This document shows, piece by piece, positions 42,006-60,620 of a stretch of 64,000 nucleotides of DNA. The position numbers and the translations under genes were made by a program. Origin of the DNA: an uncultured virus (IMG/VR IMGVR_UViG_3300003702_000449) (Duplodnaviria; Heunggongvirae; Uroviricota; Caudoviricetes); IMG/VR virus record IMGVR_UViG_3300003702_000449. One strand, written 5' to 3'. How positions within the stretch are numbered: position 1 is the stretch's first letter; each line of letters opens with the position of its first letter. Under the pieces are notes generated by a model, which made no database searches, was not told the origin of the DNA, and saw only the letters and a program-made list of their open reading frames with translations.

Positions 42006-42644
42006 CTATAAGTCATCCTCATCTATCTTAAGTTGCTTTCCAGTAACTGCGATAACTTCCTTGGTATCAAAGAGAGAGAAGAAATTGGGACCATGGATCT
42101 TTATCTTTCTCCTCTTTCCAGTACGCATATCAAAGAAGGTAATATTAGCAGTTCCACTTACTCCATAGCCATTACATCTGTCACACTTTTCATACTCAAT
42201 GGGATCAGACTTCTTAATGACTACTTCTTTTTCACCTTGACACTTTTGGCAAGGAATTTCCTTCCTATAACGGCAGGTCCCTCGCACATCTATAGCACGT
42301 CTTAAACGCTTATCAACAGTATCTATATGGTGAATACACACATACAAGTCAACATTTCGCTTTCTAGTCTGTGCTATAAAATAGGTGAATAACTTATTTA
42401 ACTTAGAAGCAGAAGTTCTAGCATCTAAATAGATGTAAGCCTCATCAAGGACCATTACGCAGTCAGATAATTCTTGGTCTAGCATATGATCCACAAAGAA
42501 CTGGGTATCTAACTGCGTATGAGGAAAGTTTACATGGACGTTAGATATAACATCCCTTCCCCTAGTAAATTCAAGGTAAGCAAGGGCGGTAGCACTTAAA
42601 GTTTTACCAGATCCCATTACTCCCTCAAAAGTGAATATAGGCAT
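42006..42644 (-). CDS. Zot / inovirus pI-like morphogenesis ATPase with Zn-ribbon insertion
   Basis: GVMGSGKT, VISN, VLDEA...DAR, QTRKRNVDL....H....DKRLR; CQKC...CDRC insert. Confidence 0.8.
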   Translation of the reverse strand: MPIFTFEGVMGSGKTLSATALAYLEFTRGRDVISNVHVNFPHTQLDTQFFVDHMLDQELSDCVMVLDEAYIYLDARTSASKLNKLFTYFIAQTRKRNVDLYVCIHHIDTVDKRLRRAIDVRGTCRYRKEIPCQKCQGEKEVVIKKSDPIEYEKCDRCNGYGVSGTANITFFDMRTGKRRKIKIHGPNFFSLFDTKEVIAVTGKQLKIDEDDL

Positions 42645-42949
42645 TACTCTCCTTCTACTCCACTTCTAGTTGCTAGTAGTGCCTCAATTAGTTCTGCACG
42701 ACCTTTCCTATCTCTAGAAATCTGCAGTTGATAGAACTCACTAGAGAAATCATCTAGAAGTTTAGATTTATACCTCTTCTGGATTGTCATAAGTAATGCT
42801 AAAGGATATACAAGATCTGGTGTGACCTCTGTAATCATCTTCAGTCTGGATTTCTTAGCATCAAAAAGTGTATTTACTACACCTGCTGATTCTTCTCCCC
42901 CTCCCCCTGATGCAAATATTGAATCTAGTAAACTTCCTTGCGTAGTCAT
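42644..42949 (-). CDS. hypothetical protein coupled to the Zot-like ATPase
   Basis: L.ISRDRKGRAE motif; 1-nt overlap with the ATPase. Confidence 0.6.
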   Translation of the reverse strand: MTTQGSLLDSIFASGGGGEESAGVVNTLFDAKKSRLKMITEVTPDLVYPLALLMTIQKRYKSKLLDDFSSEFYQLQISRDRKGRAELIEALLATRSGVEGE

Positions 42950-43218
42950 TATCCTTCCTCTCCTATTACTGTTATATACCCAGCCTCAAATAACCTTCTA
43001 ACTACCTCTTTAGTTATACCTACATGTCTCTCATCAAATTCCTGCCAACTAATAAATCCACGTTTTCCTGAAGCCATAAGTCCTTCATCTATAGCATGTA
43101 GTATTAAAGAATCCCAAGTATCTAGATAATTACCAGTTCCTGGAATCTCCGCCTCAGCAGACTTCTTATTTAACTTTGCTTGATACTGTCTACCTTCTTC
43201 TGTAAGTACAAATTCCAT
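42949..43218 (-). CDS. permuted winged-helix family member
   Basis: FVLTEEGR...VRRLFEAGYITV. Confidence 0.6.
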   Translation of the reverse strand: MEFVLTEEGRQYQAKLNKKSAEAEIPGTGNYLDTWDSLILHAIDEGLMASGKRGFISWQEFDERHVGITKEVVRRLFEAGYITVIGEEG

Positions 43219-43538
43219 TACAAGTACTCTTCTGGAATATTGTCTACTGTAACATAACCGCCCTGGAGTAACTGACCTATTACTGTATACCCATAGTCCC
43301 CATACTTAACTTTAAAGTCATTCCAGTCCCTAAAACTATTATCTCCGGAACCTATTGTTCCATTATCTATAGCAACTAGCCATTTCTTACGTTCAAAGTG
43401 TAGATACTTAGCAGGACCATACATTTCTTCATTATCTTCACCATAATCATATGTACCAGACTTGCGGTGAATCATATCCTGTATATCCCATTCCTTTTCT
43501 AGTTGAACCCTGCCTTTATCTGTAAGTATAAGTTCCAT
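43218..43538 (-). CDS. permuted winged-helix family member
   Basis: LILTDKGR...IGQLLQGGYVTV. Confidence 0.6.
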   Translation of the reverse strand: MELILTDKGRVQLEKEWDIQDMIHRKSGTYDYGEDNEEMYGPAKYLHFERKKWLVAIDNGTIGSGDNSFRDWNDFKVKYGDYGYTVIGQLLQGGYVTVDNIPEEYL

Positions 43539-43933
43539 TAGTCTTTAGGTCCAGTGTACTTATCTTGGATATGTAGAGCAGCTTCCCTAGGATCAGTTGT
43601 TAAGTACCCTTCCTCTAACATATGGCCTAGTTGCCTTTCTAAATATAAACTTTCATATAGTTCAGTTTCATCAGCAGGTACTAAGCCTCTTCCTTGAGTT
43701 ACCCAACCTATATAATGATCCTTAAAAGTCTTAACAGTAAAAGGTTGTCTTGCTACCTTATAAGAGTCTACAATACTTCCCCAGGCACTACGATCCAATC
43801 CATCTAACCATTCTATAAAGTCATCTGTTGGATAAAAGACTCTATCAGGACTCTTTCTAATATCCCTAGCAATTTCCCATTCTACAGGATCTTGGAATTC
43901 TTTACTATTACTAAATCTTCCTGTATTAGACAT
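43538..43933 (-). CDS. YPTDDF subgroup, tandem paralog
   Basis: FYPTDDF...EGYLTTDPREAALHIQDKYTGPKD. Confidence 0.6.
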   Translation of the reverse strand: MSNTGRFSNSKEFQDPVEWEIARDIRKSPDRVFYPTDDFIEWLDGLDRSAWGSIVDSYKVARQPFTVKTFKDHYIGWVTQGRGLVPADETELYESLYLERQLGHMLEEGYLTTDPREAALHIQDKYTGPKD

Positions 43934-44340
43934 CAGTCTTTAGGTCCTGTATACTTGTCTCTGATGTGCATTGCTGCTTCTCTAGGATCAGTAGTATAAA
44001 CACCCCGGAATATATCATTAGCTATTTCAGTCTCTGGCCACAATCCCTCATGGTAATCCTTTGATACTGAAGGATAGAACTTGTCCAGTTCAGATAACAT
44101 ATACTTTGGTGCTACATTAAATCTACCACCAATATATCTTTCTACAGCTTTCTTAACTGTCATAGGCTTTTCCATAAAACCATAAGCTGCTGACCAGTAT
44201 CCACCTATATGACTGTTCTCATACTTTTCTTTATCTTCAAAGAAATCATCAGTAGGATATAACATCCAACTAGGATTGGCTCTAAGCTTCTTTGCTAGTG
44301 TTTGAACTTCAGGCTGCCACTCATCTATCGGAAATGACAT
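43933..44340 (-). CDS. YPTDDF subgroup, tandem paralog
   Basis: LYPTDDF...GVYTTDPREAAMHIRDKYTGPKD. Confidence 0.6.
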   Translation of the reverse strand: MSFPIDEWQPEVQTLAKKLRANPSWMLYPTDDFFEDKEKYENSHIGGYWSAAYGFMEKPMTVKKAVERYIGGRFNVAPKYMLSELDKFYPSVSKDYHEGLWPETEIANDIFRGVYTTDPREAAMHIRDKYTGPKD

Positions 44341-44379
44341 CAGTCTACTTTCTCTTTTCAGTTAATTGATACTTATCCA

Positions 44380-44616
44380 TTATCTTTTGTCCAGTGCTCC
44401 TAAATTAACCAGTTGTTCCAAAGCCCTGTGTACCTGAGCATTAGATGATTTATAAGACTTACCACCAAAATTAAAGGTTTTACTCTGAGTAATAATTGAT
44501 ATAGGTTGGACCCAGTCATTAAGTAAAGAATGTCTGAAAATATACTGCTGGAGGACAGTGCCGTTGCCAATTCTTAACCTCTCACTAATTTTAGGTTTCC
44601 TACGATATTCAACCAT
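44380..44616 (-). CDS. probable winged-helix-like small protein
   Basis: C-term VHRALEQLVNLGAL. Confidence 0.45.
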   Translation of the reverse strand: MVEYRRKPKISERLRIGNGTVLQQYIFRHSLLNDWVQPISIITQSKTFNFGGKSYKSSNAQVHRALEQLVNLGALDKR

Positions 44617-45389
44617 TAGGAAGAATACTTCTGTTTAGCATAAGTCCAAATTTTACGTCTGTAATCTTTAGATTGCTTTTTACTAAGAATACCTTTCTTA
44701 AGAAGATTATTTATAGCAGTATTAGCTGCTTCAAAAACCTTTCTTTTTCTATTTATAGTAGCTGCTCCATATCTGGTATAACTACTCCCTCCTAATTCCT
44801 GTTTAAAGTAGTACAGAAAGGTATCTAGGTACTCAGGTAGCTCTAGATCCCCTATATTCCAACCTTTTACCTCTTGTAGAAGACGAACTTCAAATTCTGT
44901 AACTAAATCCTCATAGGTCTCAAGTCCCCAAACATAGCCTTCCCCAAACTCCTTTTCTATCTTATCCCAATCGCTAGTACCAAACATTTCTAGAGCATCT
45001 GACCTTACTCTAGCTTCTTTATCTGCCTGCTCTGCAGAATGTCCAAGTTGCCAATGGGCTAATTCATGGGATATAACAGCAGCACCACGCTCCTTCATAC
45101 TATCATCAATTACATCCGCAATAGCACGTTTGCCTCTGTCTTTATCTTTAAAGGTATGAAGTTGCCTAGCCTCATGAGCCTCTTCAGTTGACTCAGGATA
45201 AAGTTTTCTTTGATCCGCAATATTAACTGTTTTATCCCTAGCACTATACATACCAGCTGCATGTTTTGCATCTGGCCCATATCTCATCTCTTCAGGATCA
45301 AGATGCAGTCTTAAAAGAATAGCATCTCCCCAGTCTTTACCCTCTTTCTTCCATTTTGATTTATCTGCCATTAGTAAGTTATTCTGCAC
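44616..45389 (-). CDS. zincin-like metallopeptidase (HExxH)
   Basis: AGMY....TVNI, VISHELAHWQLGH, downstream Glu. Confidence 0.65.
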   Translation of the reverse strand: MQNNLLMADKSKWKKEGKDWGDAILLRLHLDPEEMRYGPDAKHAAGMYSARDKTVNIADQRKLYPESTEEAHEARQLHTFKDKDRGKRAIADVIDDSMKERGAAVISHELAHWQLGHSAEQADKEARVRSDALEMFGTSDWDKIEKEFGEGYVWGLETYEDLVTEFEVRLLQEVKGWNIGDLELPEYLDTFLYYFKQELGGSSYTRYGAATINRKRKVFEAANTAINNLLKKGILSKKQSKDYRRKIWTYAKQKYSS

Positions 45390-45774
45390 TCATTACAGGA
45401 TAAAGGTAAGTTATATATTGCGGAGGTATAGTACAATATGCTATCCAAGCATTTATTCTGCTATGAAGACTAAATTCCGGATCTCTCTTTAGTTCGCAAT
45501 ATTCAGGAACATTCACTTCTAGTATATGCCATTCGTCAGGATTAGTTTCTCTCATAAATTGAGTGGATCCACCTAATCGTGCATCATCTTCAGTTCGAAA
45601 GAGATATACTCCATTCTGGATTGAAGATCTAGCTCTTTTAAATCCTCGGAACATTGCTCCTTGAGGCTTTAGACCTTCTTCGAAGATAGATTTAAGGTGA
45701 GCTCTACGAGTTATATGATACCAGTCGTCTGGAACTCCCTTAATACTGGCTTCTACCTGAAAATTAGAAGTCAC
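45379..45774 (-). CDS. ADP-ribosyltransferase-fold protein (Tpt1/KptA C-domain-like)
   Basis: WYHIT....KSIFEEGLKP...GVYL...ILEV...IPPQYI. Confidence 0.65.
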   Translation of the reverse strand: MTSNFQVEASIKGVPDDWYHITRRAHLKSIFEEGLKPQGAMFRGFKRARSSIQNGVYLFRTEDDARLGGSTQFMRETNPDEWHILEVNVPEYCELKRDPEFSLHSRINAWIAYCTIPPQYITYLYPVMSAE

Positions 45775-46228
45775 TTAATTGCCTTCTAGCTTTATCAGCA
45801 AAGTCTCGTCTAGACCTTCTAACATTTCTATTAGTAGTATTAGCTCTCTTAGTTATTTCTCTAAGATTGTTTCTAAAGGCTGTACTTGTATCAATCATAT
45901 TCTCTGGGGTCCAGCCACGCTTCTGGTAAGTGTTCCAATTAAAGGTACCAAAGTCTCCCATGCGCTTTTCATGTCTAACTTCAGTTCGCATCTGATGTAA
46001 AAGAGGGGCAAAGGCCATGAGTAAGAATACTAAACATGATCCTTGTACCCATAGAACACCTATTCCAGGTCCAAGAACTCCAGTAGCAAGGGCCATAATA
46101 GGAACTAACCAGGCAATAGAAGCTCCAAAGGAATAGGGCAACATCTTAACCTGATAAGCCATAAAAGTTAGACCCAAAGCTAAACCTAGAAATGCTATTA
46201 AAGTTACGCCTTCTGCTGAAGTAGCCAT
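45764..46228 (-). CDS. membrane protein (3 TM) with basic C-terminus
   Basis: Hydrophobic N-half and Arg-rich tail. Confidence 0.65.
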   Translation of the reverse strand: MATSAEGVTLIAFLGLALGLTFMAYQVKMLPYSFGASIAWLVPIMALATGVLGPGIGVLWVQGSCLVFLLMAFAPLLHQMRTEVRHEKRMGDFGTFNWNTYQKRGWTPENMIDTSTAFRNNLREITKRANTTNRNVRRSRRDFADKARRQLSDF

Positions 46229-46229
46229 A

Positions 46230-46769
46230 CTAACCTACTTTATTACTTATTTCAGTAACTACGCCTTCTAAACTACCCAATTTAGAAACTAGATAGAACA
46301 TAATAACTATAGATACTGCTCCTACACCTAAACTAGCAAAAGTTATCATTCTATTTGCAGGACTTCCAGCTTGATCCTTAGTACCCTTTACAATAAGTCT
46401 CATCCAGTTAGGATCTAATATGGATCCTAATTCCATTGAACTTAAATGTGTAGGAGTTGCTGAATTCCAATTTATAGGTTCTGCATTTCCCCTTTGATAT
46501 AAGGCACAAGGCATTATCTGTTGCATGAAACCAGGCCAACCAGTTGGATATCTAATTAATCTGACTGCATCAGGATGTACTATATATCTTTCATCGTCCA
46601 TAGTAACAAAGTCTCCTTGAACTTTTACAAGACTCTGTTTAGCTGATCTATCATCCTCCATTATCCAACAAAGCATCCTTCCAACAGTTCGTGTTCTCAT
46701 CCAGAAGAAAGCCGCTACCGGCAGTAAACCCATAACCATTATCATAAGTACAGGTCCCATAAAATCCAT
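46230..46769 (-). CDS. membrane protein (N- and C-terminal TM), candidate morphogenesis factor
   Basis: TM, soluble domain with Y..GN.EPI, TM; first gene after a promoter. Confidence 0.65.
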   Translation of the reverse strand: MDFMGPVLMIMVMGLLPVAAFFWMRTRTVGRMLCWIMEDDRSAKQSLVKVQGDFVTMDDERYIVHPDAVRLIRYPTGWPGFMQQIMPCALYQRGNAEPINWNSATPTHLSSMELGSILDPNWMRLIVKGTKDQAGSPANRMITFASLGVGAVSIVIMFYLVSKLGSLEGVVTEISNKVG

Positions 46770-46803
46770 CCCCCTTAAGTTTTAAAGAAATTTCCTCACC
46801 TCT

Positions 46804-46832
46804 ATTATATATCAGTTATACTTATTCGTCAA
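46804..46832 (-). promoter_or_regulatory. sigma70-type promoter TTGACG-N17-TATAAT
   Basis: Minus strand TTGACG aataagtataactgata TATAAT in an intergenic gap. Confidence 0.75.
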
Positions 46833-46871
46833 CTGGACTGTTTAATATGATATACAGACTTTGACTATAAA

Positions 46872-48233
46872 CTACTTTCCCTGACCCCTGGCTCCTCGTT
46901 TACCCTTTCCTCTTCCCTCTGTCCATTTGGGTAACCCCAACTCTTTTCTATAGTCTACCATAGTACCACTAGAAATTCTTAGATTTTCTATAATATGACT
47001 ATCTGGTACTTTACCAGCATGTTCTAAAAGATAGTCTTTTATTTCCTCATACCGTTTCTGATATTTAAGTCCTCCTCTTATTCTACTAAGACCTCCAATC
47101 TGTTTACCAAGTCCAACTATTCCCAACTTTCTTCTATGAACAGTAATTGTAGGAACACTTATATTGAGGGCATCAGCTATCTGTTCACTAGTCATATAAT
47201 CATTGTGACGTAGTATATAATCATCTATTCTCTTAGTTTCTCTGTCTCTCTTAACAGTCCTATAAGGCCCAAGTCCAAGTCTCTTCCTAGCCTTTGCAAC
47301 TACCCCTGAATCTATATTTAAGGCTTCTGATACCTCAAGATCAGTTACCTCTTCTCCAAAACTTCTTATATACTCTTCCACATCTTCTTGAGTTGTACCC
47401 TTACGTGCTAACAAAGTTTTAGAACGTTTTCCACCCATTTCTAACATAGATTTTTCTCTGGAATAGACACCAGCCTCTTCCATCCAGGTCTTTATTAAAG
47501 CATAACCTATATTAAGTTCTTCTGCTATTTCTTCTATAGCATCAGCCTGAGTAGTAAGTCCATCAAGGGTCTTTTCCTTAAAAAGTTCTATGGCCCTTTC
47601 TTTAATAGCTTCTCTTTCATCTACCTCACTATCATCCCCAACTCCAGTAAACATACGTCTAGTAGATTGTATCTTCTGAACCTGAAGACTTTGTGCAGGA
47701 ACTATTCTCTCTAAATCAGGATGATTCCTGCCAAAAGGACCCCTGCCTTCTTTCCCTAATAAGGCCTTTGAGACTTCTGGCTGAGATATTCCCAAATCTT
47801 TAACTATATCCTTTACAGCCTTTTCAGGATGGTCTGAAGCATAAGTCCTGACCTTTTCCCAAGTAGGTACAGAATACTTAGAACTTCTTGGACTTGTAAC
47901 AGTAGGACTATGAGCAAATCCACCTCTAGCATGTGGTAGCTTCCAACCACCACGCATGGTTCCGCCACCCATCTCGTGTTCCCACAAATCAGACTCAAAC
48001 ATTCCTACACCTTGTTTTTTAGGTGTAGTTCCCTCATATTGAGGATTGGGTCTAACTTCAGGAGTTGCTTCTATATCACCTATTCCTTCATAGGTTTCCC
48101 AAAGCCATGGATCTTTTTTGGCACTCATACATTCGGAACAGGCTACTTTACCTTCTTTTGTAATACTACCAGAAATGTCTTCAGCCTGACACTTTTGGCA
48201 AGGTAAACCAGTTTCCTCACTATAATCCATCAT
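46872..48233 (-). CDS. multi-HTH DNA-binding protein with N-terminal Zn ribbon
   Basis: CQKC/CSEC; about five HTH units, e.g. IADALNISVPTITVHRRKLG and VSEALNIDSGVVAKARKRLG. Confidence 0.7.
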   Translation of the reverse strand: MMDYSEETGLPCQKCQAEDISGSITKEGKVACSECMSAKKDPWLWETYEGIGDIEATPEVRPNPQYEGTTPKKQGVGMFESDLWEHEMGGGTMRGGWKLPHARGGFAHSPTVTSPRSSKYSVPTWEKVRTYASDHPEKAVKDIVKDLGISQPEVSKALLGKEGRGPFGRNHPDLERIVPAQSLQVQKIQSTRRMFTGVGDDSEVDEREAIKERAIELFKEKTLDGLTTQADAIEEIAEELNIGYALIKTWMEEAGVYSREKSMLEMGGKRSKTLLARKGTTQEDVEEYIRSFGEEVTDLEVSEALNIDSGVVAKARKRLGLGPYRTVKRDRETKRIDDYILRHNDYMTSEQIADALNISVPTITVHRRKLGIVGLGKQIGGLSRIRGGLKYQKRYEEIKDYLLEHAGKVPDSHIIENLRISSGTMVDYRKELGLPKWTEGRGKGKRGARGQGK

Positions 48234-48239
48234 AATTAT

Positions 48240-48728
48240 CTAATCACAGTGAGGACAAGTATCATGCCCAAAATGATATCTTTGACACTTTTCACACCAG
48301 TTAGCAGCTTTATGAGCTTCAAACTGCTCTCTTCTATGTATACGCTTAAGATCTTCTATCTGTTTAGTTCCTAGTTCCCGTTCAGTAGAGCTTGGAGCAT
48401 AGTCTACATCAGGCATATAGACTTCTATCTTCTTACCATCTCTATATAAATCTGATATAATTCTTTTAGTCTTCTCTGGAGACCAACCAGTGTGTCTAGT
48501 TACTTGAGTAGTAAGAGAGTCTCTTTCTATACCTTCATCAGGAGCCTCATCTAATATTTCCAGAATGATGGCCTGTTCTTGTTCCTTTCTAAATAAGTCA
48601 GCAGTCTCTTTAACACTAGAACCTGATAATTCTGCTTCTTGAAGATAGTTACGAATATCTCCTAGGAACTCAACACCTGCCTGTGATATTCTAATATTTG
48701 TCATAATACTCATCTGGTGTTCCCTCAC
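48240..48728 (-). CDS. permuted winged-helix family member with C-terminal Zn knuckle
   Basis: IRISQAG...IISDLYRDG; WCEKC...CPHC; start likely 48704. Confidence 0.55.
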   Translation of the reverse strand: MREHQMSIMTNIRISQAGVEFLGDIRNYLQEAELSGSSVKETADLFRKEQEQAIILEILDEAPDEGIERDSLTTQVTRHTGWSPEKTKRIISDLYRDGKKIEVYMPDVDYAPSSTERELGTKQIEDLKRIHRREQFEAHKAANWCEKCQRYHFGHDTCPHCD

Positions 48729-49134
48729 TGTGGTAGAGGGAATCCATACGCATTCTTTCTAATTTAGCCTGTTGATGCATCTCAGCAACTTCTTCAGGAG
48801 ATAGAGCAGTAGGATTCATAGTCATAAGAATATCATCTTCATCATATTCTTGAACTTGTTCTAAATACCTAGCCTCAAACAGATGCCTAACTATCCTATT
48901 GGTAAACTCTCTTGTAAGATTTACTACTGACCAATCTATATATGAATCTTTCTTATTAGTTTCTTGATAGGCATATTCATAGATCTTATCTGAATCTATA
49001 ACTGGACCAAATATCTCAAAGAGGGAAAGTATAGTAGCAGCATCTTCCATAGCCGGAGGATCATCACTTTCAAAGTCAGTATCCCAAGCTTTTTCCATAT
49101 ACTTTCTGCCTAAATCTGTAAGGGCCAACTTCAT
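48691..49134 (-). CDS. permuted winged-helix family member
   Basis: LALTDLGR...VRHLFEARYLEQV. Confidence 0.6.
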   Translation of the reverse strand: MKLALTDLGRKYMEKAWDTDFESDDPPAMEDAATILSLFEIFGPVIDSDKIYEYAYQETNKKDSYIDWSVVNLTREFTNRIVRHLFEARYLEQVQEYDEDDILMTMNPTALSPEEVAEMHQQAKLERMRMDSLYHSEGTPDEYYDKY

Positions 49135-53600: not shown

Positions 53601-56600
53601 TAATCTGAGCGTCTCCTATACTAGCACTATTGTCACCATGAATTACTATTAACTGAGGATCCCTGGTAGTTCCACCATACTCTGCCATATTAGCAGTCAT
53701 ATAGTCCGAACCACCTGTAGTATTATATTTAGTACCTAAATAATAAGAAGACTGTCTTATAGTTGGAGGGTCGTCTCCACCAATATAATCTAAATCGAAA
53801 CTAGAACGTAGATTAAAGTAAGTTATACCCCCAGGATTAAAACTATGTAATCCTCTCTCATTAAAGGCCATCATAGGAAAATGTTCGTTCCAAACATGTG
53901 GAGCACCTTGGTTATATATAGAAGGTTGCATTGAAATAGGAAATCTATTACCTAATTCCGTATTGTACCATCTACCATCTTTAAAGTCTGATAGTGTTAG
54001 AATGTCTACATTACCTGAAAGGTCAGGTATGTTAGAATCAGTTAATACTACGGTACTTCCTAAACCAGATACGTTAGCAGAATCCGATGTGAATATTTTT
54101 AAGTAGGCTGAATGGTAACCTTTATTTGCACAGGGCTCACTATAATTTACTGTTAGTCTGGCACCTCTACCACCATCTTCGAAAGCCTGAATATCTACAT
54201 AGGCATTTAACCCTGTTGCGCCTTGTCTCCACATAGGAGCACCATTACGAAAGTGGTCGATAACTATCATAAAGCTAGAGGCACCAGTAGGGTCAATCGA
54301 ATCTATGCCTCTATCATTTAATCTAAATTGATTTTCCTTTGGTCCAAATACCTGTGATGTTGATATATCGTTAATAATCAAATCATTAGCAAATGGAGGG
54401 TCTCCTGAGGGAGTAGCAGTTCTAAAGTTTGAAACTACACTATTATTTGCTACATCGCCAGGACTAAAGCCTATTAAGCTTATATGTATAGGAAAATCTG
54501 CAGTTCCCAAAGTATCATATTTAGCACTTGCCTTAAAGTCGATATAAGCTGAAGTAATAATGGAATCGCTAGGTATACTAGATGTATCAAAGGACAGCGT
54601 AACGTCAGAACGGTCAGTATAGGCGTTGTTCTCAAAACCTAACTGAGACTTCACTCGGTTAGCACCTAAAGTCATACTAGTTTGAGCATCGTAAGGATGT
54701 CCAGGTGACTGGTTTGAAGGATCCCCTAGTATCTCTTTCCAACCTTGGTTCCATCCTCCAGATGTATGGTTAGAGGTGCTAAAGTTTCCATCTTGATGCG
54801 TAGCAGACGTCTGTGTAACAAGAGTGCCTGTAGGACAAGAATAATCAGGTAGACTAGAAGTATCGAATCCATAATACATCTTAGATAGATAGGACCAGGC
54901 ACCTGGTGTATTATCTTTCTGACTTAATTGAATTGCTGAACCACCACTTTGAGTATAATGAACTGTAGTTCCATTACCTCCGTACTGTAGGTATCTCCAC
55001 ATACCTGTATAGAAACCAGGTTGATAATTTACTATATCCCCATCCATACCTGTACCTGGGGCCCAGTTAACTCCTGTATAGAAGGTACTTACTGAGTTAT
55101 TGTTCACAGTAGAGGTATTATCAACTTCAGCACAGGGAAGAACATAGCGTACTTCTAAGTAAGGATCTCTTTCGAGTCCAGTAGGACCCCAGTTATCTTC
55201 TGCATTATATGCAGAAATACCATTCATTCTATTAGCAGCCGTCCACCACGCAAAGTCATTATCTATATCCATACCGAGGGCTAGTTGGAAACTAGTATTT
55301 TCAGTATCTTTCTTTATATAGTCTTTGCCTACATCAGTAAGGTCCCATACTTCATATCCGCCACCTCTATCCTTACCAAAAGACCCAACGTTAGGCGTCG
55401 CGTTCGCTACATGGAAAGGACCCATGTTCTCCATAAGCTTATCATTACTTAATCTCATGTAGGATGTACGATGCATATCCCCATTAGTGAAAGTAGTTTC
55501 TGATTGAGGATCAAAATCAATTAAAGCTAAGCCCTGTTTTCTCCAACGGTAATTTCCAAAACCTCCATAATCTCTATCATTGTAGTGGTAAGCATAATTT
55601 ATATAAAGTCCAACTCTACCTTCTATAATAAAAGCATCATCAGGTATCGCAGAAGTATCAAAACTAAACATCATCCTTTCGCCTACTTCATATAAATTAT
55701 AAGAGGCGTCTGTTTGTATGATAGTTCTCATCGGAGACCAGCTATCACCTCCCCCATTTCCAAAGTTACTAACATTACTACGAGTTATTTGATCCCAAGT
55801 TAGACCAGGATATCCTGCATTTTGAGTTTGACCATATCCATCCCAACTATCTTGACCTGGTACTCCATCTGCATCAGGATAGAATTTCATCTGAGTTGCT
55901 GGACACATCTTTAATGTATCAGTTGCATAGGTAATTACTAATTGAGGAGAAGGTTCTGATGACTCTGAAGTATGGAACCTCATTTCAGTATCTGAAGTAG
56001 CGGCATGAGCGTGCATATCATCCATAAACATAAATAGTTCAGTCCAGCCTGTTCTATTTACATGGACATTTGTCATTCTAGGCCAAGAAGTATGACCCAT
56101 GTTATTCATATTCATGGACCTAAGGGGAAAGGTCTCTAGAACGTTGTGACCTTGCTCACATATATCCGTTACAGCCCTTAATCTATGAGCATCATCTCCA
56201 GGAGAAGTTTTATACTGCTCAGCTGTCCATATATCTGTTGCATCTATAGGCCAATAACCTGTATAAGCTCCAGCAGTTTCACTTGACTGAGGATTAGCAT
56301 AAGGTTGCTTTCCATGTGCCCAACCTATTCCAAATAATATGTGCTGGTCTCCAGTTGTTAATTTAGAATGGCAAGCTAACTTTAAGTCTGCTTCTAAAAT
56401 CAGAGCATCATCAGGTAAAGATGAAGTATCAAACCTTACATGGGAAAAGTTATACCTACCAACACTATATTTAACTTCCATATCAGGCCAAGTTGTATTA
56501 GCGCTGCAACTACTTACAGTAGGAGCAGTAGCATAACAGTTTACCTCACCATCATCGGTACCACTTGATACACTGAAAGTAACAGTGGGGTCAATAAGGT

Positions 56601-58251
56601 AAGGATAAGAAATTTCAGGAACTATAGAATCATCAAAATTCATTCTTATTCTATATTCATCCAATATCTCCCAAGAACCTGCATCAAACCTTTCTTGGTC
56701 TGAACCTATAAGTACAGGTCTAGGAACTACTAGTCTAGGTACCGAACCTCCAAATTCGCTTTCCTCTGTAAACCAATCTAAAGTTATAAAACCATCTATA
56801 GGCTCATAGAATAGGTCAGTATGTCCAGTTACAGCATTTCCCTGAAGATCAAGTCTTAAAGGTTGTACTCCAAATCCTAGAGGTTGGAATACGAAATCAT
56901 ATTCTTGTTGACCTAAAGGATTAGTAACTTCAGCAGTTAACTTAATGCCAGCATTGTTTAATGTATAAATCCATTTAAGTCCTTCATATTCATACCAAGC
57001 AGTATTTCCTTCATAACTAAGAGGAGTAGGAGTATACCATCTACCTCCATATTCTCCATCACTACTTAAGAAAGATATGGTACTCTGATTACCCTCAACC
57101 TTAAACCAGGGATGAGTAACCATAGACCAATTTTCTGGATTATCTGGATCTTGAATTAAGTTTAAACTAGTTTCTCTCCAGTCTCCTTCATCATCTTTAT
57201 AATGTATATTAGGTTCATAAGTACTTCTTAAAGTACCAATTGCTATCTGGAAAGTCTTTGAATCTCTAGTTCTTAAATCTATCCTTTCAGAGAAACTTTC
57301 TACTTCAGGTAACTCACCAAAATATTCTTCAATTAGGCCATCTTCATTTATCTTATAAGCCTTATTTATCAGATAAGAAAACTTGGACGCAAGACTATTA
57401 GCACCTGCAGCCTCATTCTCACTATAACTTCTAATTGGAAGTACTGACCTACCAATGTCCCTAGTCCATCCACTTACAATTCTAGTATAGTGCATACTTC
57501 CGACTACATTAAGTAGTGCCATTTCCTCTAACGAAGTCTCTGTCTTTAACTTCCAAAAAGCTCCCTTATCATAATGCCAACTAGTTCCCCCTGTACCTAT
57601 ATATCTAGGTTCGCCTAGAATAGCCTGAACTTCGTCTCCAGTCATTCCTTCAACTATACTATCTGGAAAGACTCCATAATCATCTATTATTCCAGTTACA
57701 ACCTGATGCTGTCCAGGAGTCTGTCCCTCTACCATTTGATCTATAGTAACAAACCCTGCATTTTCAGGATCATCTGGATCTTCTAAAAATATATCTTCCC
57801 AAGTAGCCGCAGGCGTTACTAATTCTAAGGTAATATATCCAGTGGGTATATACTGCTCTAATTCCTCTACGTCACTATTAGTCTCTTTATTAAATACAGG
57901 ATAGGAACGATAAGGAGCTACAGTATTATCCTCCCTAAGAAATTCTCCTAATATATTAGTTTCTCTATCAACTCTTTCGTTTAGAAGTCCGTCCCAAGTG
58001 TATAGTTCATAAAACCATTCTTTACCATACTTATCTATATGTTGAACTTCTAATACTAGCTTTCCTTGAGCAGAACGGACATCTACTATTCTAAAGTCTG
58101 CACTATCATTATGGTTATGATTAGCTTGGTCGTGAGGCTCGCTTTCGCTATGAGCAAAAAGTTGATTAGGTACTACTATAATAGCTAAAGTAAATAGCAC
58201 TATACTTAGCCAAGTAATTAACCAAGACTTATCTAATCTATGACGGATCAT
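50626..58251 (-). CDS. giant membrane-anchored adhesin/spike (SmpA-like, DNRLRE-like repeats, IPT/TIG, 7-blade propeller, 3-TM anchor)
   Basis: Signal peptide; GMT.DEV..ILG.P; five FDTS.(L/I)P.D units; SISP...LTLTG IPT pattern; seven ..F.P....(L/V)AV....PY..VY.F blades; C-terminal TMs. Confidence 0.8.
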   Translation of the reverse strand: MIRHRLDKSWLITWLSIVLFTLAIIVVPNQLFAHSESEPHDQANHNHNDSADFRIVDVRSAQGKLVLEVQHIDKYGKEWFYELYTWDGLLNERVDRETNILGEFLREDNTVAPYRSYPVFNKETNSDVEELEQYIPTGYITLELVTPAATWEDIFLEDPDDPENAGFVTIDQMVEGQTPGQHQVVTGIIDDYGVFPDSIVEGMTGDEVQAILGEPRYIGTGGTSWHYDKGAFWKLKTETSLEEMALLNVVGSMHYTRIVSGWTRDIGRSVLPIRSYSENEAAGANSLASKFSYLINKAYKINEDGLIEEYFGELPEVESFSERIDLRTRDSKTFQIAIGTLRSTYEPNIHYKDDEGDWRETSLNLIQDPDNPENWSMVTHPWFKVEGNQSTISFLSSDGEYGGRWYTPTPLSYEGNTAWYEYEGLKWIYTLNNAGIKLTAEVTNPLGQQEYDFVFQPLGFGVQPLRLDLQGNAVTGHTDLFYEPIDGFITLDWFTEESEFGGSVPRLVVPRPVLIGSDQERFDAGSWEILDEYRIRMNFDDSIVPEISYPYLIDPTVTFSVSSGTDDGEVNCYATAPTVSSCSANTTWPDMEVKYSVGRYNFSHVRFDTSSLPDDALILEADLKLACHSKLTTGDQHILFGIGWAHGKQPYANPQSSETAGAYTGYWPIDATDIWTAEQYKTSPGDDAHRLRAVTDICEQGHNVLETFPLRSMNMNNMGHTSWPRMTNVHVNRTGWTELFMFMDDMHAHAATSDTEMRFHTSESSEPSPQLVITYATDTLKMCPATQMKFYPDADGVPGQDSWDGYGQTQNAGYPGLTWDQITRSNVSNFGNGGGDSWSPMRTIIQTDASYNLYEVGERMMFSFDTSAIPDDAFIIEGRVGLYINYAYHYNDRDYGGFGNYRWRKQGLALIDFDPQSETTFTNGDMHRTSYMRLSNDKLMENMGPFHVANATPNVGSFGKDRGGGYEVWDLTDVGKDYIKKDTENTSFQLALGMDIDNDFAWWTAANRMNGISAYNAEDNWGPTGLERDPYLEVRYVLPCAEVDNTSTVNNNSVSTFYTGVNWAPGTGMDGDIVNYQPGFYTGMWRYLQYGGNGTTVHYTQSGGSAIQLSQKDNTPGAWSYLSKMYYGFDTSSLPDYSCPTGTLVTQTSATHQDGNFSTSNHTSGGWNQGWKEILGDPSNQSPGHPYDAQTSMTLGANRVKSQLGFENNAYTDRSDVTLSFDTSSIPSDSIITSAYIDFKASAKYDTLGTADFPIHISLIGFSPGDVANNSVVSNFRTATPSGDPPFANDLIINDISTSQVFGPKENQFRLNDRGIDSIDPTGASSFMIVIDHFRNGAPMWRQGATGLNAYVDIQAFEDGGRGARLTVNYSEPCANKGYHSAYLKIFTSDSANVSGLGSTVVLTDSNIPDLSGNVDILTLSDFKDGRWYNTELGNRFPISMQPSIYNQGAPHVWNEHFPMMAFNERGLHSFNPGGITYFNLRSSFDLDYIGGDDPPTIRQSSYYLGTKYNTTGGSDYMTANMAEYGGTTRDPQLIVIHGDNSASIGDAQIIQSGGETIVLDLWGTHWVDAGATFDAQRQNIINGLTGSLGAGSTNWNTSVRDDMNVSEVVRTSDSRVTITLLPHVLYNPSTPTETISITIPGSAIKPFVTGIVPDDIVLPENYNFSIDQIPFGFTSISPTMAGNSGSLELTLTGLGLPGPTFAPPEDVIIFKSGAPTSPITCTPISGGGTSVVVSCLVDGIQTGDWSVKATEAGGLNATLTDALIIFEPWSSTVNGGSFSQSGSDYAVFAHTDLPYFTVQAFDEVDKEWDSSSNPPTTIPAAAGTDAMFTSDKTRLVVGTAANANYLWAYVFDPATGVISGTPPNPTSVGSIGVNGFDIGTGDNIVVAATTDSAGVYMYDIDNSGAIAGFWTSTLTAPTSPPGAECNAVDINTNATFVAVGCSTSPYLHVWAITNGGAGTPSWSSKSSAPAGGNIPSGVITGIEFSPDGSHIAIVTDTSPYLEVYPFSAGAIGTKISTTALPGAGTGVAWLTENTSGPTNLAASHAVGPYLTVYNFNTLTGVFGTKLDDPSPALGSATTSIGFHPNDDTLFVGLTASPYIAAYNFTGTSDNDYRIYRYMANFDTSYLPSDATVTAATLSIYIDSVNVGTDWQLLVEAGAAGSEPLVVGDYDYLNYTVQVQLSALTASTLVVGAYNDIPLNAAGLASINAAGITQFMLRHEDDIGNSAPSAIETVDIEVGNSITFPGTACTTSTTFTALYADSDYNLCNSPNVPKLTLTYSSATATALDPLSLNWTNAQEAALAPTDGIYTIETIATGPILGLRNGTVETIGFNRVLADVSDNWDFWKSVSPSKPFPYTDYLKYDVDGTNQLWYQLNNPPGYYMPDRSGNANHSTSISFPLADNVNVTVDSSELAGDALVPDVSSIANPSLLGDIESFGINAAGNPRYAFGDPVSSPGWMNIFDRASVSMGLTPNTILGVMILFIAVILGLGAYVATGNPMLTIVGVGIALLAGVTIGAFPVYYLIMFVVVGIATVGISRSI

Positions 58252-59530
58252 TTAATTTCGCTCCAAAGGCTGCCGTAGTGTCTATAACCTTATCGTAAGC
58301 CTGCCCAATTTTATGGCTTGTTACTTCACTAGAAGTGTTTGAAAGGACATCTGCAGAATCTTCTTGTCTAACTGTTATATAGTTACTTGAGGCGTTATAG
58401 AAACTCTTTGAGTAAGATTCTTCAGCAGTAGCACTATAATAAACCCCTGCAGTTCCATCCTCCTCATTATGAGTCCAAGTTCCAATATAGTTACCACCTA
58501 CTCCAGGGGCTGTAAGAGTTAAAGTATTATTGCCTCCAGCTACTAAAGCTGACTGGTAGCCTAAATCGAATGAGGCCCCTTTACCAAAGACTGTCCCTGT
58601 CTCATTAGTATCTACTTTAAAGTTCTGTTTAATCTCGAATCTCCAGCTACTACCAGGTTCTAATACAGCTGCATCTGCAGTTACAATCCCATCAAATCCA
58701 GGAAAATAGTTATGGAATGTATCAGTATCAGCCCCTCCAGTATATAGACTATAAGGTAGAGATTCTCCTGCTGCAAGACTATCAGCATGGAACCACCACT
58801 GACCAGTTTCATACCAAGACTGTTCTCCTAAAGGTACTATAGTATTAGTACCAGCTGCAACAGCTGTTACTTCTACCTTTAACCAATAAGCAGCAAAAGA
58901 CTGGTGATTTTCCTTACCCCAGGCTCCACCTGTAGGCATAGTCCAACTAATACTATTATTCCCTACAGTCTTAAAACCATAATCATTACTGTCTAAAGTA
59001 CTATCAAGTACTCCTGAAAATCCTACCCAACTAGTACAAGTAGTTGCATTAGACGTATCACAGTATTTCCAGTTAGTAGTTAGATTATAATCAGTTGCTG
59101 TAGAAACAACTAAACGCATCATTCTTCCAGGATTATGTAAAGCAAATTCATACTCTTCATTTAATTGATAAGGGAATTCCATATCATTGGTAGTATTATT
59201 AGTAGCATCAGTAGTATCATCAGCAGCTAGTCTATTATAAGCTTTCTGCATATTTATCTTTAAAGAAGAGGGCATATTAGGTACATCAAAGGTACCTTGA
59301 TGCAAGTGTGCATTTAAAGCATCTGGAGCTATATATCCAGTATCAATTAAGGTTTGAGCTGATAAACCAAAATTCATAATAGCATCATTAACAGCAATAC
59401 TCTGAGTATTCTGAGCTGTCATCTTCCACTGGACTAAACTACCAGTTATACTAGCTCCTATCAAGAAAACAGAGAAAAAGGCAGTTAATAGAAGAAGGCC
59501 CCTCTTTTTATTTTTAGACTTACTAAACAA
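58238..59530 (-). CDS. secreted surface protein, apparent N-terminal half of a split adhesin
   Basis: Signal/TM; beta-rich; ends FGAKLNDPS, matching the propeller linker FGTKLDDPS of the next gene. Confidence 0.7.
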   Translation of the reverse strand: MFSKSKNKKRGLLLLTAFFSVFLIGASITGSLVQWKMTAQNTQSIAVNDAIMNFGLSAQTLIDTGYIAPDALNAHLHQGTFDVPNMPSSLKINMQKAYNRLAADDTTDATNNTTNDMEFPYQLNEEYEFALHNPGRMMRLVVSTATDYNLTTNWKYCDTSNATTCTSWVGFSGVLDSTLDSNDYGFKTVGNNSISWTMPTGGAWGKENHQSFAAYWLKVEVTAVAAGTNTIVPLGEQSWYETGQWWFHADSLAAGESLPYSLYTGGADTDTFHNYFPGFDGIVTADAAVLEPGSSWRFEIKQNFKVDTNETGTVFGKGASFDLGYQSALVAGGNNTLTLTAPGVGGNYIGTWTHNEEDGTAGVYYSATAEESYSKSFYNASSNYITVRQEDSADVLSNTSSEVTSHKIGQAYDKVIDTTAAFGAKLNDPS

Positions 59531-59531
59531 T

Positions 59532-60620
59532 TTAAGCCATCCTAGACATTATAAAGGTTACCCCAAATAGAACCAAAATAAAGAAGAATACAGCAAAGAC
59601 TAGTCCGATAGGAATAAGTCCTAACATACTTCCAGCTAAAATTAGAGGTATGCCAGTAACCATAGCAGGAGTAACTGCCTGAGTTACATTAAAGATCATT
59701 CCAAGTATAGATATACCTATAAGAACGAAACCTATACCTCCAATAATCATACCTGTAGCCTTTGGATTTCCCTCTGAGTCCTCCTGTTCACCAAATAAAG
59801 CTAAGCCTAATGCATCTAAATTAGTAGACATACTCTCAGGTAAATTTCCCTCTAAGAAATCTTGTCCTTTAGGAGCTCCTGTATACGCTGTAGGTTCCTC
59901 AGCTATAGAAGCAGTAAATGCAAAAATATCTGGAACTAGAGTTCTAACCCCAGGAATAACCTTCATTGCAATAGTAGCACCAGCAACACTAAGTCTATCA
60001 CCTAAGTTAGTTATTGTAGTATACTCCTGACCTGAAGCTATAGAAGCATTCTCAGTAATTTCAAGTATCTTACTCCCAAGAGAGTCTAGAGTAGTTCCTC
60101 CTAAAGTACCATCTATCCATATACTAGTATCATCTACTGATACTTTAGACTCATATGAGTTAGTAGAATCAACTGTAGAAAATAGAATAGGATTAGCACA
60201 GATACAAACCTTTAACTTATCCATATTCCAAGTTAAACCCTGATTTACCACACCCGCAGCAGTAAAGTACATAGCCTGATAAGCATGACCATAATAGAAT
60301 ATCTGTCTTATACCTCTAATAGTATCAGAAATTACAATTGGAGGTCCAGACTCAGTAACTTCTAGGATTAATTGTACTGCGAAGGCTCGCCTTGGATCTT
60401 CACTAGGAACCACAGCATAATTAACATTATATTCCACTAAGATAAGTAAATCATCAGCCTCTAAATAATTTCTAAAGACTGCAACCTGGTGTAACTTAAT
60501 AGAATCAGGGTTAGTAATAGCAAAGACTGGATTAGCAGCAAAGCTAGCCAGAACTATTGCTATAAGTATAAATATTAAGTGAAATCTACGTACTACCATA
60601 CCTGAACCTAGTAAGTCCAT
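59532..60620 (-). CDS. membrane-anchored surface protein (signal + 3-TM C-terminal anchor)
   Basis: C-terminal anchor resembles that of the 2541-aa protein (G..P...). Confidence 0.7.
   Translation of the reverse strand: MDLLGSGMVVRRFHLIFILIAIVLASFAANPVFAITNPDSIKLHQVAVFRNYLEADDLLILVEYNVNYAVVPSEDPRRAFAVQLILEVTESGPPIVISDTIRGIRQIFYYGHAYQAMYFTAAGVVNQGLTWNMDKLKVCICANPILFSTVDSTNSYESKVSVDDTSIWIDGTLGGTTLDSLGSKILEITENASIASGQEYTTITNLGDRLSVAGATIAMKVIPGVRTLVPDIFAFTASIAEEPTAYTGAPKGQDFLEGNLPESMSTNLDALGLALFGEQEDSEGNPKATGMIIGGIGFVLIGISILGMIFNVTQAVTPAMVTGIPLILAGSMLGLIPIGLVFAVFFFILVLFGVTFIMSRMA

Follow-up and report, generated by a model that had tools for sequence, protein, structure and literature searches.

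Gene content of a large metagenomic virus contig points to a non-tailed, probably bacterial virus lineage with a spindle-virus-like assembly module

The contig IMGVR_UViG_3300003702_000449, from an uncultured deep-sea virus, is 71,461 bases long. A stretch of 64,000 nucleotides of this contig, hereafter the window, was analyzed with the focus on the minus-strand genes at positions 42006–64000, which encode secreted and membrane proteins together with a Zot-type ATPase. The other 7.4 kb of the contig lie beyond base 64000, outside the window. Almost all genes have the same orientation, with 97 of 100 selected open reading frames (ORFs) located on the minus strand. In the order of transcription, from high to low coordinates, they form four blocks (morphogenesis, sugar genes, small genes, and replication with DNA modification):

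64000–41347, minus strand: block 1, secreted, membrane, and small proteins, with the gene for the Zot-type ATPase last
41350–31843, minus strand: block 2, glycosylation and sugar-nucleotide genes
between blocks 2 and 4: block 3, small genes without assigned function and a gene for a DnaJ-domain protein
22186–635, minus strand: block 4, replication and DNA modification

On balance, we favor the reading that the window represents approximately 90% of the large linear genome of a protein-primed double-stranded DNA (dsDNA) virus, whose particles would be built at the cell membrane instead of from a head and a tail, and whose host is probably a bacterium.

The most informative genes of block 1 are located at its downstream end:

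42006–42644, minus strand: Zot/pI-type P-loop ATPase, 212 aa (Pfam, PHROG, and PDB profile matches)
42644–42949, minus strand: partner of the ATPase, 101 aa, translationally coupled (its stop codon overlaps the ATPase start by 1 base)
41347–41848, minus strand: two conserved small proteins, 71 and 91 aa, encoded just downstream of the ATPase

The ATPase contains a Walker A motif (GSGKT), a Walker B motif (LDEA), and a C-terminal zinc ribbon formed by a double CxxC. It matches the Pfam family Zot (PF05707; E 2.1e-7, 31.0 bits, above the cut-off of 20.3), PHROG 1675 ("protein I of M13", 7.3e-10), and PHROG 197 ("Zot-like", 1.1e-9). In a comparison of the family profile with the PDB, the best solved relative was the Zot-like domain 2R2A (E 3.3e-7), and residues 124–163 were faintly similar to the DnaJ Zn domain 1EXK (E 0.035). 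Residues G11, G13, K14, D67, and E68 are invariant across 29 sequences. Thus, the Zot/pI-like ATPase with a coupled partner, recognized in a first-pass annotation made from the sequence alone, is confirmed, the ATPase by its family matches and the coupling by the one-base overlap. Inovirus pI proper has a membrane-spanning segment and a C-terminal periplasmic part; hydropathy analysis of this ATPase found no hydrophobic or membrane segment.

Among 50,697 GenBank records of phages and archaeal viruses, a tblastn search with the ATPase found only three matches: the spindle-shaped Asgard viruses WyrdV1 (34%, 3e-11) and Muninn (33%, 3e-12), for which the identity of 33–34% spans half of the protein length, and an inovirus-like Zot protein (28%). 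A blastn search of GenBank phages with positions 42006–48233 found no match. Relatives of the ATPase are numerous in larger collections: 121 were found among 90%-identity clusters, on contigs of up to 118,856 bases, and the profile found 115 proteins at E<=1e-30 and 1,669 at E<=1e-10 among 1.84 billion representatives. The ESM Atlas returned Zot clusters labeled as viruses and nothing else.

The partner gene adjoins the ATPase gene in all seven relatives that have this position (G001, G002, G003, G005, V1, V3, and V7). In WyrdV1 and Muninn, the ORF directly preceding the ATPase gene encodes a product with weak similarity to the partner (phmmer E 0.0024; hhalign 48.5%, E 1.8e-4, 85 columns). 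Homologues of the 71-aa and 91-aa proteins were found at the same position in G001, G002, G003, V1, and V3.

All 96 minus-strand ORFs of the window were scanned against PHROGs (E<=1e-3) and Pfam (E<=1e-2). No terminase, portal, HK97 or double-jelly-roll capsid, tail, or lysin family was matched by any of them, nor were relaxase or type IV secretion system (T4SS) families; approximately half of the ORFs have no family match at all. The first-pass statement that terminase, portal, HK97 capsid, tail, and lysin genes were not recognized holds for each of the 96 ORFs.

The search was extended to relatives. A search pattern based on an alignment of the ATPases found seven IMG/VR contigs with ATPase relatives; a pattern based on a single protein found none. 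The relatives analyzed include three whole IMG/VR contigs, G001 (109.6 kb), G002 (87.8 kb), and G003 (54.2 kb), as well as one contig of a metagenome-assembled genome (MAG), G005:C6 (91.2 kb). The first 96 bases of G002 recur, reverse-complemented and 100% identical, at 113–208 bases from its other end. With these inverted terminal repeats (ITRs), G002 is taken to be a nearly complete linear genome, as protein priming would predict; a protein-primed DNA polymerase of family B (pPolB) is encoded in the window. No head, tail, or packaging family was found in the 150 ORFs of G002 with PHROGs, or in 140 of them with Pfam, 10 already named replication and Que genes being omitted from the latter run; the sole hint of a head-tail gene was a weak PHROG match of a 1003-aa protein to "baseplate wedge connector" (1.6e-9). 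For G001 and G005:C6, no head-tail family was found with Pfam in 145 of the 171 ORFs of at least 125 aa, the other 26 being homologues of annotated window genes. The tests for Caudoviricetes hallmarks used sequence profiles only. Relaxase and type IV secretion families of Pfam were likewise not found in the window, in G002, or in the G001/G005:C6 scan. Thus, neither of the two gene sets named in advance by the first-pass annotation as contradicting its proposal, a head-tail set or a relaxase with a T4SS on the same replicon, was found in these scans of the window, G002, G001, and G005:C6.

These results bear on the view that the contig belongs to a tailed phage, with genes for head, tail, and packaging that are divergent beyond recognition or located outside the window. 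The many ORFs without family match, the unseen 7.4 kb, and the weak baseplate match in G002 leave some room for it. However, the unseen part is too small for a head-tail module, and G002, which has ITRs, contains no such genes, so the window is not a tailed phage cut by its edge. In addition, the large conserved proteins are equipped with signal peptides as well as membrane anchors, and the 362-aa protein among them is modeled as an anchored beta-sandwich. We consider a tailed phage highly improbable. Both a tailed phage and a conjugative plasmid were rejected as candidates, since profile scans of the window and its relatives found no hallmark families of either.

The window and its relatives share a replication block, which includes genes for ribonucleotide reductase (RNR), pPolB with the adjacent 198-aa gene, a PolA-UDG (uracil-DNA glycosylase) fusion, HNH, Que, Cas4-like, helicase, and Rad52-like proteins. 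The order of the morphogenesis genes is also kept. It runs from one or more hairpin genes through a large variable protein, small basic proteins, the 362-aa protein, and a giant protein to the 128-aa protein, the 179-aa protein, a "hairpin plus basic tail" protein, the partner, the ATPase, and the 71-aa and 91-aa proteins; in the giant, only the C-terminal part is conserved. In the JGI locus L108, the whole block down to the ATPase gene lies within 10 kb.

The hairpin genes provide the link to spindle-shaped viruses. Upstream of the block, the relatives carry ORFs of 66–78 aa, often in tandem, each with two hydrophobic helices. They were found in all four ATPase-found relatives that extend that far (V1, V7, G001, and G002), the other five being cut short; thus, the conserved ATPase is encoded together with a capsid-like hairpin gene on the same contigs. 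In Pfam, His1_capsid (PF25665) was the best or second-best match for five of five hairpins, over the full length (E 0.0019–0.13). The best match of the hairpin profile among 177,635 distinct PDB sequences was 7XDI chain A, "VP1" of the fusellovirus SSV19 (E 0.0035), and phrog_11172 was the top PHROG match for three of five hairpins (E 0.012–0.3). In JGI metagenomes, 166 loci with a hairpin gene were found with a 4-sequence alignment; for the 80 loci kept, identity in the best segment was 64–100%. Several of these hairpin genes are located near a contig end, and eight longer loci have a 362-aa-type gene downstream. A basic protein is encoded directly before the hairpin gene in several relatives. 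A tblastn search of GenBank viruses with one hairpin protein found no match.

These sequence matches, individually weak yet consistent with one another, are suggestive, not proof, of a relationship between the hairpins and the coat proteins of spindle-shaped viruses (fusellovirus VP1, His1 VP21). Other results speak against the reading of the hairpins as coat proteins of this lineage, the window virus included. All the His1_capsid matches are below the 27-bit cut-off, hhalign against the coat proteins of His1, WyrdV1, and Muninn gave only 36%, and a hidden Markov model of six relatives' hairpins found no match at E<=10 in the six-frame translation of the window. By synteny only, the hairpin gene of the window virus would be located just upstream of the gene for the >926-aa protein, within the 7.4 kb past base 64000; the last 60 bases of the window have no exact match in IMG/VR or JGI metagenomes. 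For the comparison of membrane proteins with those of fuselloviruses, suggested in the first-pass annotation, the relatives provide the weak SSV19 VP1 match, and no hairpin was found in the window itself.

The other genes of the morphogenesis block are as follows:

42949–44340, minus strand: four small soluble proteins forming two paralogous pairs
44616–45389, minus strand: 257-aa protein with a HELAH motif (Peptidase_M48 at residues 102–122, E 0.0027, below the cut-off)
45764–46228, minus strand: 154-aa protein with hydrophobic helices, three in number, and a C-terminal tail rich in Arg/Lys (hydropathy)
46230–46769, minus strand: 179-aa conserved protein with N- and C-terminal membrane helices (hydropathy)
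46872–48233, minus strand: 453-aa protein with repeated helix-turn-helix (HTH) units
48240–50263, minus strand: five small soluble proteins, some with paralogues elsewhere in the window
50232–50618, minus strand: 128-aa conserved protein with N- and C-terminal membrane helices (hydropathy)
50626–58251, minus strand: giant secreted protein of 2541 aa, with a signal peptide and several C-terminal helices that form an anchor
58238–59530, minus strand: 430-aa protein with an N-terminal hydrophobic segment
59532–60620, minus strand: 362-aa conserved protein with a signal peptide, a beta-sandwich ectodomain, and C-terminal helices with an anchor
60586–61207, minus strand: three small proteins, of which that of 74 aa is conserved and the other two (80 and 46 aa) are basic and rich in Lys/Ala
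61220–64000, minus strand: >926-aa protein running off the window edge, with a Pro/Gly/Thr-rich middle and a C-terminal InlB B-repeat-like domain

The small membrane proteins reported in the first-pass annotation correspond to 45764–46228, 46230–46769, and 50232–50618. Homologues of the 179-aa protein were found in G001, G002, G005, V1, V6, V7, and the loci L085 and L108, and those of the 128-aa protein in G001, G002, G005, V1, L060, L108, and L109. The 154-aa protein is a candidate for a membrane or virion protein in contact with DNA; similar ORFs of the "hairpin plus basic tail" type occupy the matching position in V1, V3, G002, G003, and G005.

Two secreted proteins carry C-terminal anchors. 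The 2541-aa giant has no family match above cut-off (PHROGs, Pfam), and its similarity to relatives is confined to approximately 200–250 C-terminal residues. This combination of a variable N-terminal part and a conserved anchor makes it a likely adhesin, and it is considered a candidate adhesin or receptor-binding protein. For the 362-aa protein, 10 database relatives were found, as well as homologues downstream of the hairpin genes in the eight JGI loci; a search of IMG/VR with its alignment found no further contig. Its AlphaFold (AF2) model, with a mean pLDDT (predicted local distance difference test) of 69 and values of ~80–90 for residues 40–190, shows a beta-sandwich followed by helices and an anchor. 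Foldseek searches of PDB and BFVD with this model found generic Ig/FnIII-like sandwiches (TM 0.16–0.24) and no capsid fold among the matches. The predicted beta-sandwich fits a surface protein, nothing more specific. The first-pass annotation had ascribed related three-helix anchors to these two proteins. Both are indeed anchored, but the C-terminal anchors have no significant BLAST similarity (E 0.13), so the likeness is one of architecture only.

The >926-aa protein matches Flg_new_2 (E 4e-9). It is the positional counterpart of the 759–1053-aa proteins encoded after the hairpin genes in V1, G001, and G002, with no significant sequence similarity to them. Homologues of the 74-aa protein were found in G001 and V7. 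The tandem Lys/Ala-rich basic proteins of 46 and 80 aa are encoded at 60811–61207, and the small basic proteins of 60586–61207 possibly bind DNA. A hydrophobic 89-aa ORF on the opposite strand (60824–61093) is probably an artefact of the composition of the basic proteins.

Among the remaining proteins, the 453-aa protein matches HTH_5 (5e-6), HTH_24 (5.8e-6), GerE (8.4e-5), and PHROG 323 (1.9e-10), and probably binds DNA. The 257-aa protein, judged by its HELAH motif, is a possible zinc metalloprotease. The paralogous pairs of 42949–44340 were defined by BLASTP (42949–43218 with 43218–43538, E 7e-8; 43538–43933 with 43933–44340, E 6e-19), and none of the four proteins has a family match in PHROGs or Pfam. 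The 430-aa protein has no family match in these collections and no homologue in the relatives compared.

The other blocks contain the following genes for replication, DNA modification, and glycosylation:

4621–6965, minus strand: pPolB (4621–6369; PF03175, E 1.7e-34) and an upstream 198-aa gene
7092–9500, minus strand: family A DNA polymerase of 802 aa with an N-terminal family-4 uracil-DNA glycosylase and a 3'-5' exonuclease
10777–18699, minus strand: 7-deazaguanine set consisting of QueE, QueD, QueF, two QueC-like proteins, and FolE
31843–38138, minus strand: sugar-nucleotide genes for a GmhA-like isomerase, a fructose-6-P aldolase/transaldolase, an HddA-like heptose-7-P kinase, and a nucleotidyltransferase
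38250–41350, minus strand: Gtr-like glycosylation pair (Pfam; PHROG 841 "GtrB-like", 7e-16)

Both the pPolB and the glycosylation genes named in the first-pass annotation were thus found. The pPolB gene and the 198-aa gene are kept and adjacent in G001, G002, G003, and G005, and the 198-aa gene may encode the terminal protein. Only distant relatives of this pPolB were found, in tectivirus, autolykivirus, and Methanosarcina virus sequences; they are uninformative on the host. Together with the PolA fusion, the genome has two replicative-type polymerases. The FolE, QueD, QueE, QueC-like, and QueF-II proteins point to 7-deazaguanine DNA modification; the QueC, QueF-II, and dut products of the window are above the NCBIfam cut-offs. 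Block 4 also includes genes for Rad52-like protein, UvrD-like helicase, Cas4-like nuclease, HNH endonucleases, dUTPase, class II RNR, and DnaQ-like exonuclease. The glycosylation pair consists of a 525-aa GT-C enzyme (PMT_2/TMEM260-like) and a 507-aa fusion of a GT2 glycosyltransferase, a GtrA-type membrane domain, and a methyltransferase. The sugar-nucleotide genes suggest, by sequence similarity, a virus-encoded nucleotide-heptose pathway, every NCBIfam match being below the equivalog cut-off.

Some further features of the window and its relatives were recorded. A paralogous pair without family assignment is encoded at 16111–16947 and 9500–10270 (E 6e-8). Families of small paralogous proteins are scattered over the window (22973–25786, 29003–29356, 31551–31850, 33487–37166, 42949–44340, and 48691–49517), and an N-terminal "L-T-D/E-x-G-R" motif, detected by eye, is common to some of them. 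The 187-nt intergenic region at 20147–20333 (minus strand) is predicted to fold into a hairpin and a long branched stem (-75.9 kcal/mol, z-score -5.4), a stability equaled by none of 200 shuffles. The region matches no Rfam family; a non-coding RNA, a terminator complex, and a cis element are possible interpretations. No tRNA genes and no Rfam families were found in the window. Among the relatives, G002 has a gene for tRNA Met-CAT (L015:4807–4881), and G005:C6 has genes for Leu-TAA and Arg-TCT (L028:11996–12079 and 17750–17823). The QueE-like radical-SAM gene of G001 (615 aa, L010:18071–19918) has matches to intein/HINT domains and is probably interrupted by an intein.

The domain of the host was addressed through the promoters. 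The following sites were found in the window:

46804–46832, minus strand: sigma-70-type promoter TTGACG-17-TATAAT, located in the gap before the 179-aa gene, at the head of the operon whose last gene encodes the ATPase
22416–22444, minus strand: sigma-70-type promoter TTGACA-17-TATGAT, in a 291-nt gap with two more TTGACA motifs
30117–30146, minus strand: sigma-70-type promoter TTGACA-18-TATTAT, with TG before the -10 element
519–548, minus strand: perfect sigma-70 consensus TTGACA-18-TATAAT, in a gap

All four window matches of at least 11/12 to TTGACA-N16-18-TATAAT are located on the coding strand and within 1,922 non-coding bases; in shuffled windows, 2.9 such matches were found anywhere. 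At the level of at least 10/12, the intergenic regions of the window contain 7 sense and 0 antisense matches, with a mean of 1.05 for decoys, which were letter-permuted promoter motifs. In five genomes pooled, the numbers at the level of at least 11/12 were 7 sense, 0 antisense, and 0.55 for decoys, and in G005:C6 there were 6 sense and 2 antisense matches (decoys 1.4). Upstream of the hairpin genes, represented by 63 distinct 150-nt JGI regions, 12/12 matches were found in 6 regions, matches of at least 11 in 10, and of at least 10 in 22, versus 0, 1, and 4 for the antisense control and 0, 0.2, and 3.6 for decoys. A loose promoter scan gave no overall excess (38 versus 49.5 expected and 44 versus 61.1), so only the high-scoring sites in gaps are informative. 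Furthermore, among the hexamers upstream of genes, AGGAGG has the second-highest enrichment (64 versus 15.7 expected, 4-fold), and the relatives have genes for RusA, for three regulators of the GerE/LuxR type, and for a bacterial-type MetK that scores above the equivalog cut-off. We judge a bacterial host to be probable.

Part of the data pulls toward an archaeal host. The nearest named relatives of the ATPase belong to archaeal viruses, WyrdV1 and Muninn. Both relatives found in the species-representative genomes of GTDB come from MAGs titled as archaea, Bathyarchaeia and Thermoplasmatales. G005:C6 encodes an STT3 protein with the AglB core domain (L027:9047–10777), whose best NCBIfam match is the archaeal STT3 (8e-86, below the cut-off). 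Finally, G003 has no promoter enrichment (0 sense versus 1 antisense match). Near the STT3 gene of G005:C6, genes were found for an epimerase, a nucleotidyltransferase, radical-SAM/SPASM enzymes, glycosyltransferases, and the bacterial-type MetK, an odd archaeal and bacterial mix.

On such grounds, the window could be assigned to a large archaeal spindle-shaped virus, a big-genome relative of the Wyrdviridae-like viruses, in which the bacterial-looking promoters and genes are coincidental or horizontally acquired. The likeness of the hairpins to SSV19 VP1 and His1 VP21 would agree with this, as would, according to excerpts of two papers, the QueCDEF-containing "enzymatic arm" of large ANME-1 spindle viruses (PMC9894754) and the description of the spindle shape as archaea-specific (PMC10541130). 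Nevertheless, consensus -35 and -10 elements with 17–18-nt spacing, enriched on the sense strand over antisense and decoy controls, speak against it; the enrichment also holds in G005:C6 and, at many loci, upstream of the hairpin genes. The MetK, dut, and QueF-II proteins of the relatives are of bacterial type, the relatives encode GerE regulators, and no TFB, TBP, PCNA, or Orc1-type gene turned up in the Pfam scans of the window, G002, and G001/G005:C6. As to the MAGs, a close family member was found in only one of the 197 genomes of G005's class, G005 itself, with distant matches in five others. With this lone close carrier, the archaeal placement fits chance binning, and mis-binning of similar elements to archaeal MAGs is reported in the available text of a preprint on Dehalococcoides IME1 elements (10.64898/2026.09.15.751708). 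An archaeal virus is therefore considered an unlikely, though not negligible, explanation. The first-pass view of the signals and metabolic genes as bacterial is thus strengthened for the sigma-70 promoters, now sense-enriched against controls, while the host domain is contested by the archaeal MAGs and the AglB-like enzyme.

A lipobox scan gave no candidate in the window and three in relatives. Since some archaea have lipoboxes too, these were not used as host evidence.

The virus nature of the element was weighed separately. A linear protein-primed plasmid or a vesicle-borne element, with membrane proteins and an ATPase serving the cell surface or transfer instead of virions, would account for the many metabolic genes, and pPolB and ITRs are also found on linear plasmids. 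Against a virus also stand the lack of direct evidence for particles and the origin of every run with the sequence, a total metagenome without library description. Yet the content and order of the block (hairpin, adhesin-like anchored proteins, ATPase with partner) are those of a spindle-virus morphogenesis module, and the hairpin is conserved as strongly as a structural protein would be. In addition, no relaxase, T4SS, or partition genes appeared in the Pfam scans, and the relatives are catalogued as viral contigs in IMG/VR. A non-viral mobile element is regarded as rather improbable.

If the element is a membrane-assembled virus, its cycle may be pictured by analogy. Transcription would be carried out by the host sigma-70 RNA polymerase. 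The cytoplasmic membrane would take up the hairpin coat protein and the C-terminally anchored glycoproteins. The Zot-type ATPase, itself soluble and docked through its partner and the small membrane proteins, would spend ATP on loading or condensing DNA capped by the terminal protein into the growing particle, and the basic proteins (60811–61207) and the basic-tailed hairpin protein (45764–46228) might be packed along with the DNA. Release of the particle would proceed by extrusion or budding, in keeping with the absence of a recognized lysin among the window ORFs. The giant protein, with its variable N-terminus and conserved anchor, would act as the adhesin. The heptose genes, the GT2/GtrA/methyltransferase gene, and the GT-C gene may constitute a Gtr-type system acting on the outer side of the membrane, with virion proteins or host surface glycans as targets. 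These steps follow spindle-shaped viruses and inoviruses by analogy; what the sequences themselves show is the gene content with its kept order, the family of the ATPase, the signal peptides and anchors, the ITRs of a relative, and the promoters.

Near-identical sequences were found in hydrothermal vent metagenome runs of two studies, with 0.96 of the sampled words in a run of 2015 (X1), which may be the source of the contig, and 0.53 and 0.48 in two runs of 2023 (X2 and X3). For X2, the pieces reached every one of the 30 bins of 44001–64000, and 44 of 45 had a likeness of 99% or more. In a seawater run of 2024 (X7), the pieces were mostly 90–95% alike, with many small skips in the gene for the giant protein. 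No RNA runs were found among the sequencing runs carrying window sequence. Taken together, the data lead us to lean toward a widespread lineage, apparently not described before, of large linear viruses that are protein-primed, probably bacterial, and equipped with a spindle-virus-like assembly module. The large, non-tailed, probably enveloped lineage proposed in the first-pass annotation is upheld as non-tailed by G002, and a literature search found no paper describing the large linear lineage; its presumed envelope gained no support.

A broader proposal, held tentatively and at somewhat less than even confidence, is that the hairpin-capsid, membrane-assembled virion type exists also in bacteria, with genomes of 70 to ~110 kb read by sigma-70 polymerase and widespread in marine, vent, and sediment environments. 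If this is true, the hairpin-capsid architecture either spans both prokaryotic domains or was transferred between them, and genomes of 70 to ~110 kb exceed the largest described spindle-shaped viruses found (72.6 kb). Almost all known large bacterial dsDNA viruses are tailed, and spindle and hairpin-capsid types are treated as archaea-specific in excerpts of PMC10541130; bacterial hosts, if confirmed, would break both rules. The lineage combines spindle-virus-like assembly, bacterial promoters, a protein-primed linear genome, and a phage-style kit for replication and DNA modification, and would offer a testable case of non-tailed particles scaling to large genomes. Should the host prove archaeal, these would still be among the largest genomes of the hairpin-capsid virion type. 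Since the lineage has no terminase, portal, or known capsid genes, standard virus-detection markers miss it, and it is probably under-counted in viromics.

Several known systems can be compared with this lineage. The closest named ones are WyrdV1 (a Lokiarchaeota virus) and Muninn (an Odinarchaeum virus), which have the nearest ATPases, that of WyrdV1 being annotated as [quoted passage not shown], with a partner-like ORF just upstream. Both also have tandem hairpin coat genes (annotated as His1-like capsid), a large adhesin, and small membrane proteins in one block, and Muninn, like the window virus, has a pPolB. In contrast, their genomes are 12.7–15.6 kb versus at least 71 kb here, their hosts are archaea, WyrdV1 has a TFIIB-like gene where the window has sigma-70-type promoters, and PolA, RNR, deazaguanine, and sugar genes are lacking. 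Homology of their coat proteins to the hairpins of the relatives is not demonstrable (the hhalign value of 36% given above).

Among the Fuselloviridae, the likeness concerns VP1 of SSV19, the best PDB match of the hairpin profile, below family thresholds. Halspiviridae (His1) share the logic of the block, namely a coat gene, proteins with N- and C-terminal helices, and proteins with a signal peptide and an anchor, as well as pPolB and ITRs. Both families have archaeal hosts, whereas that of the lineage described here is probably bacterial, and the genome of His1 is 14.5 kb. Genomes of Fuselloviridae and Halspiviridae are in the range of 14–20 kb. Neither the His1 record, which contains the ORF16 ATPase, nor the fusellovirus records were matched in the ATPase tblastn search; the ATPase found here belongs to the Zot/pI family. 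The structure 7XDI is cited in the SSV19 structure paper (PMC9351363), and a hydrophobic hairpin capsid protein together with an ATPase is described as the signature module of spindle viruses in the available text of 10.1101/2025.02.15.638363.

The inovirus protein I/Zot of Tubulavirales has PF05707, PHROG 1675, and a similar Walker core in common with the ATPase analyzed here, which differs in being a soluble 212-aa protein with a zinc ribbon, encoded by a large, linear, protein-primed genome. For inovirus pI, which contains a membrane segment, the partners in extruding a small circular single-stranded DNA genome are pIV/pXI (in part after excerpts of 10.64898/2026.09.15.751708). An inovirus was rejected as a candidate, given the 71,461-base contig, the pPolB and PolA genes, and the ITRs in a relative, versus a small circular single-stranded genome with rolling-circle replication.

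A bacterial precedent of the same idea has been proposed. The preprint on Dehalococcoides IME1 (October 2026, 10.64898/2026.09.15.751708) proposes, in the portion available, 21–28-kb elements as bacterial budding or filamentous viruses. As described there, IME1 elements resemble the lineage in being bacterial dsDNA without tailed-phage hallmarks and in having a pI-like ATPase and small hydrophobic SSV1 VP1-like proteins (phrog_11172, which contains SSV1 VP1 according to the same source). They differ in being circular, integrative, 20–28 kb long, and Chloroflexota-restricted, with 14 conserved orthologous groups, a primase-helicase, and a serine recombinase. The lineage analyzed here, compared with IME1 by that description only, is 71 to ~110 kb, linear with ITRs, and has both pPolB and PolA.

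The spindle viruses of ANME-1 (Itzamnaviridae and Tepeuviridae) are similar in layout, with a structural arm and an enzymatic arm that includes QueCDEF and nucleotide-metabolism genes, and reach 72.6 kb; they differ in their archaeal hosts and RNA-primed PolB, according to excerpts of PMC9894754. This size corrects the first-pass statement that pI-bearing spindle viruses all have far smaller genomes. No match to either family was found in the ATPase tblastn search of GenBank virus records, a collection in which their presence was left unchecked. With an ATPase and partner like those of WyrdV1 and Muninn and, in the relatives, VP1-like hairpins, the assembly module resembles specifically that of spindle-shaped viruses, a likeness that goes beyond the first-pass account.

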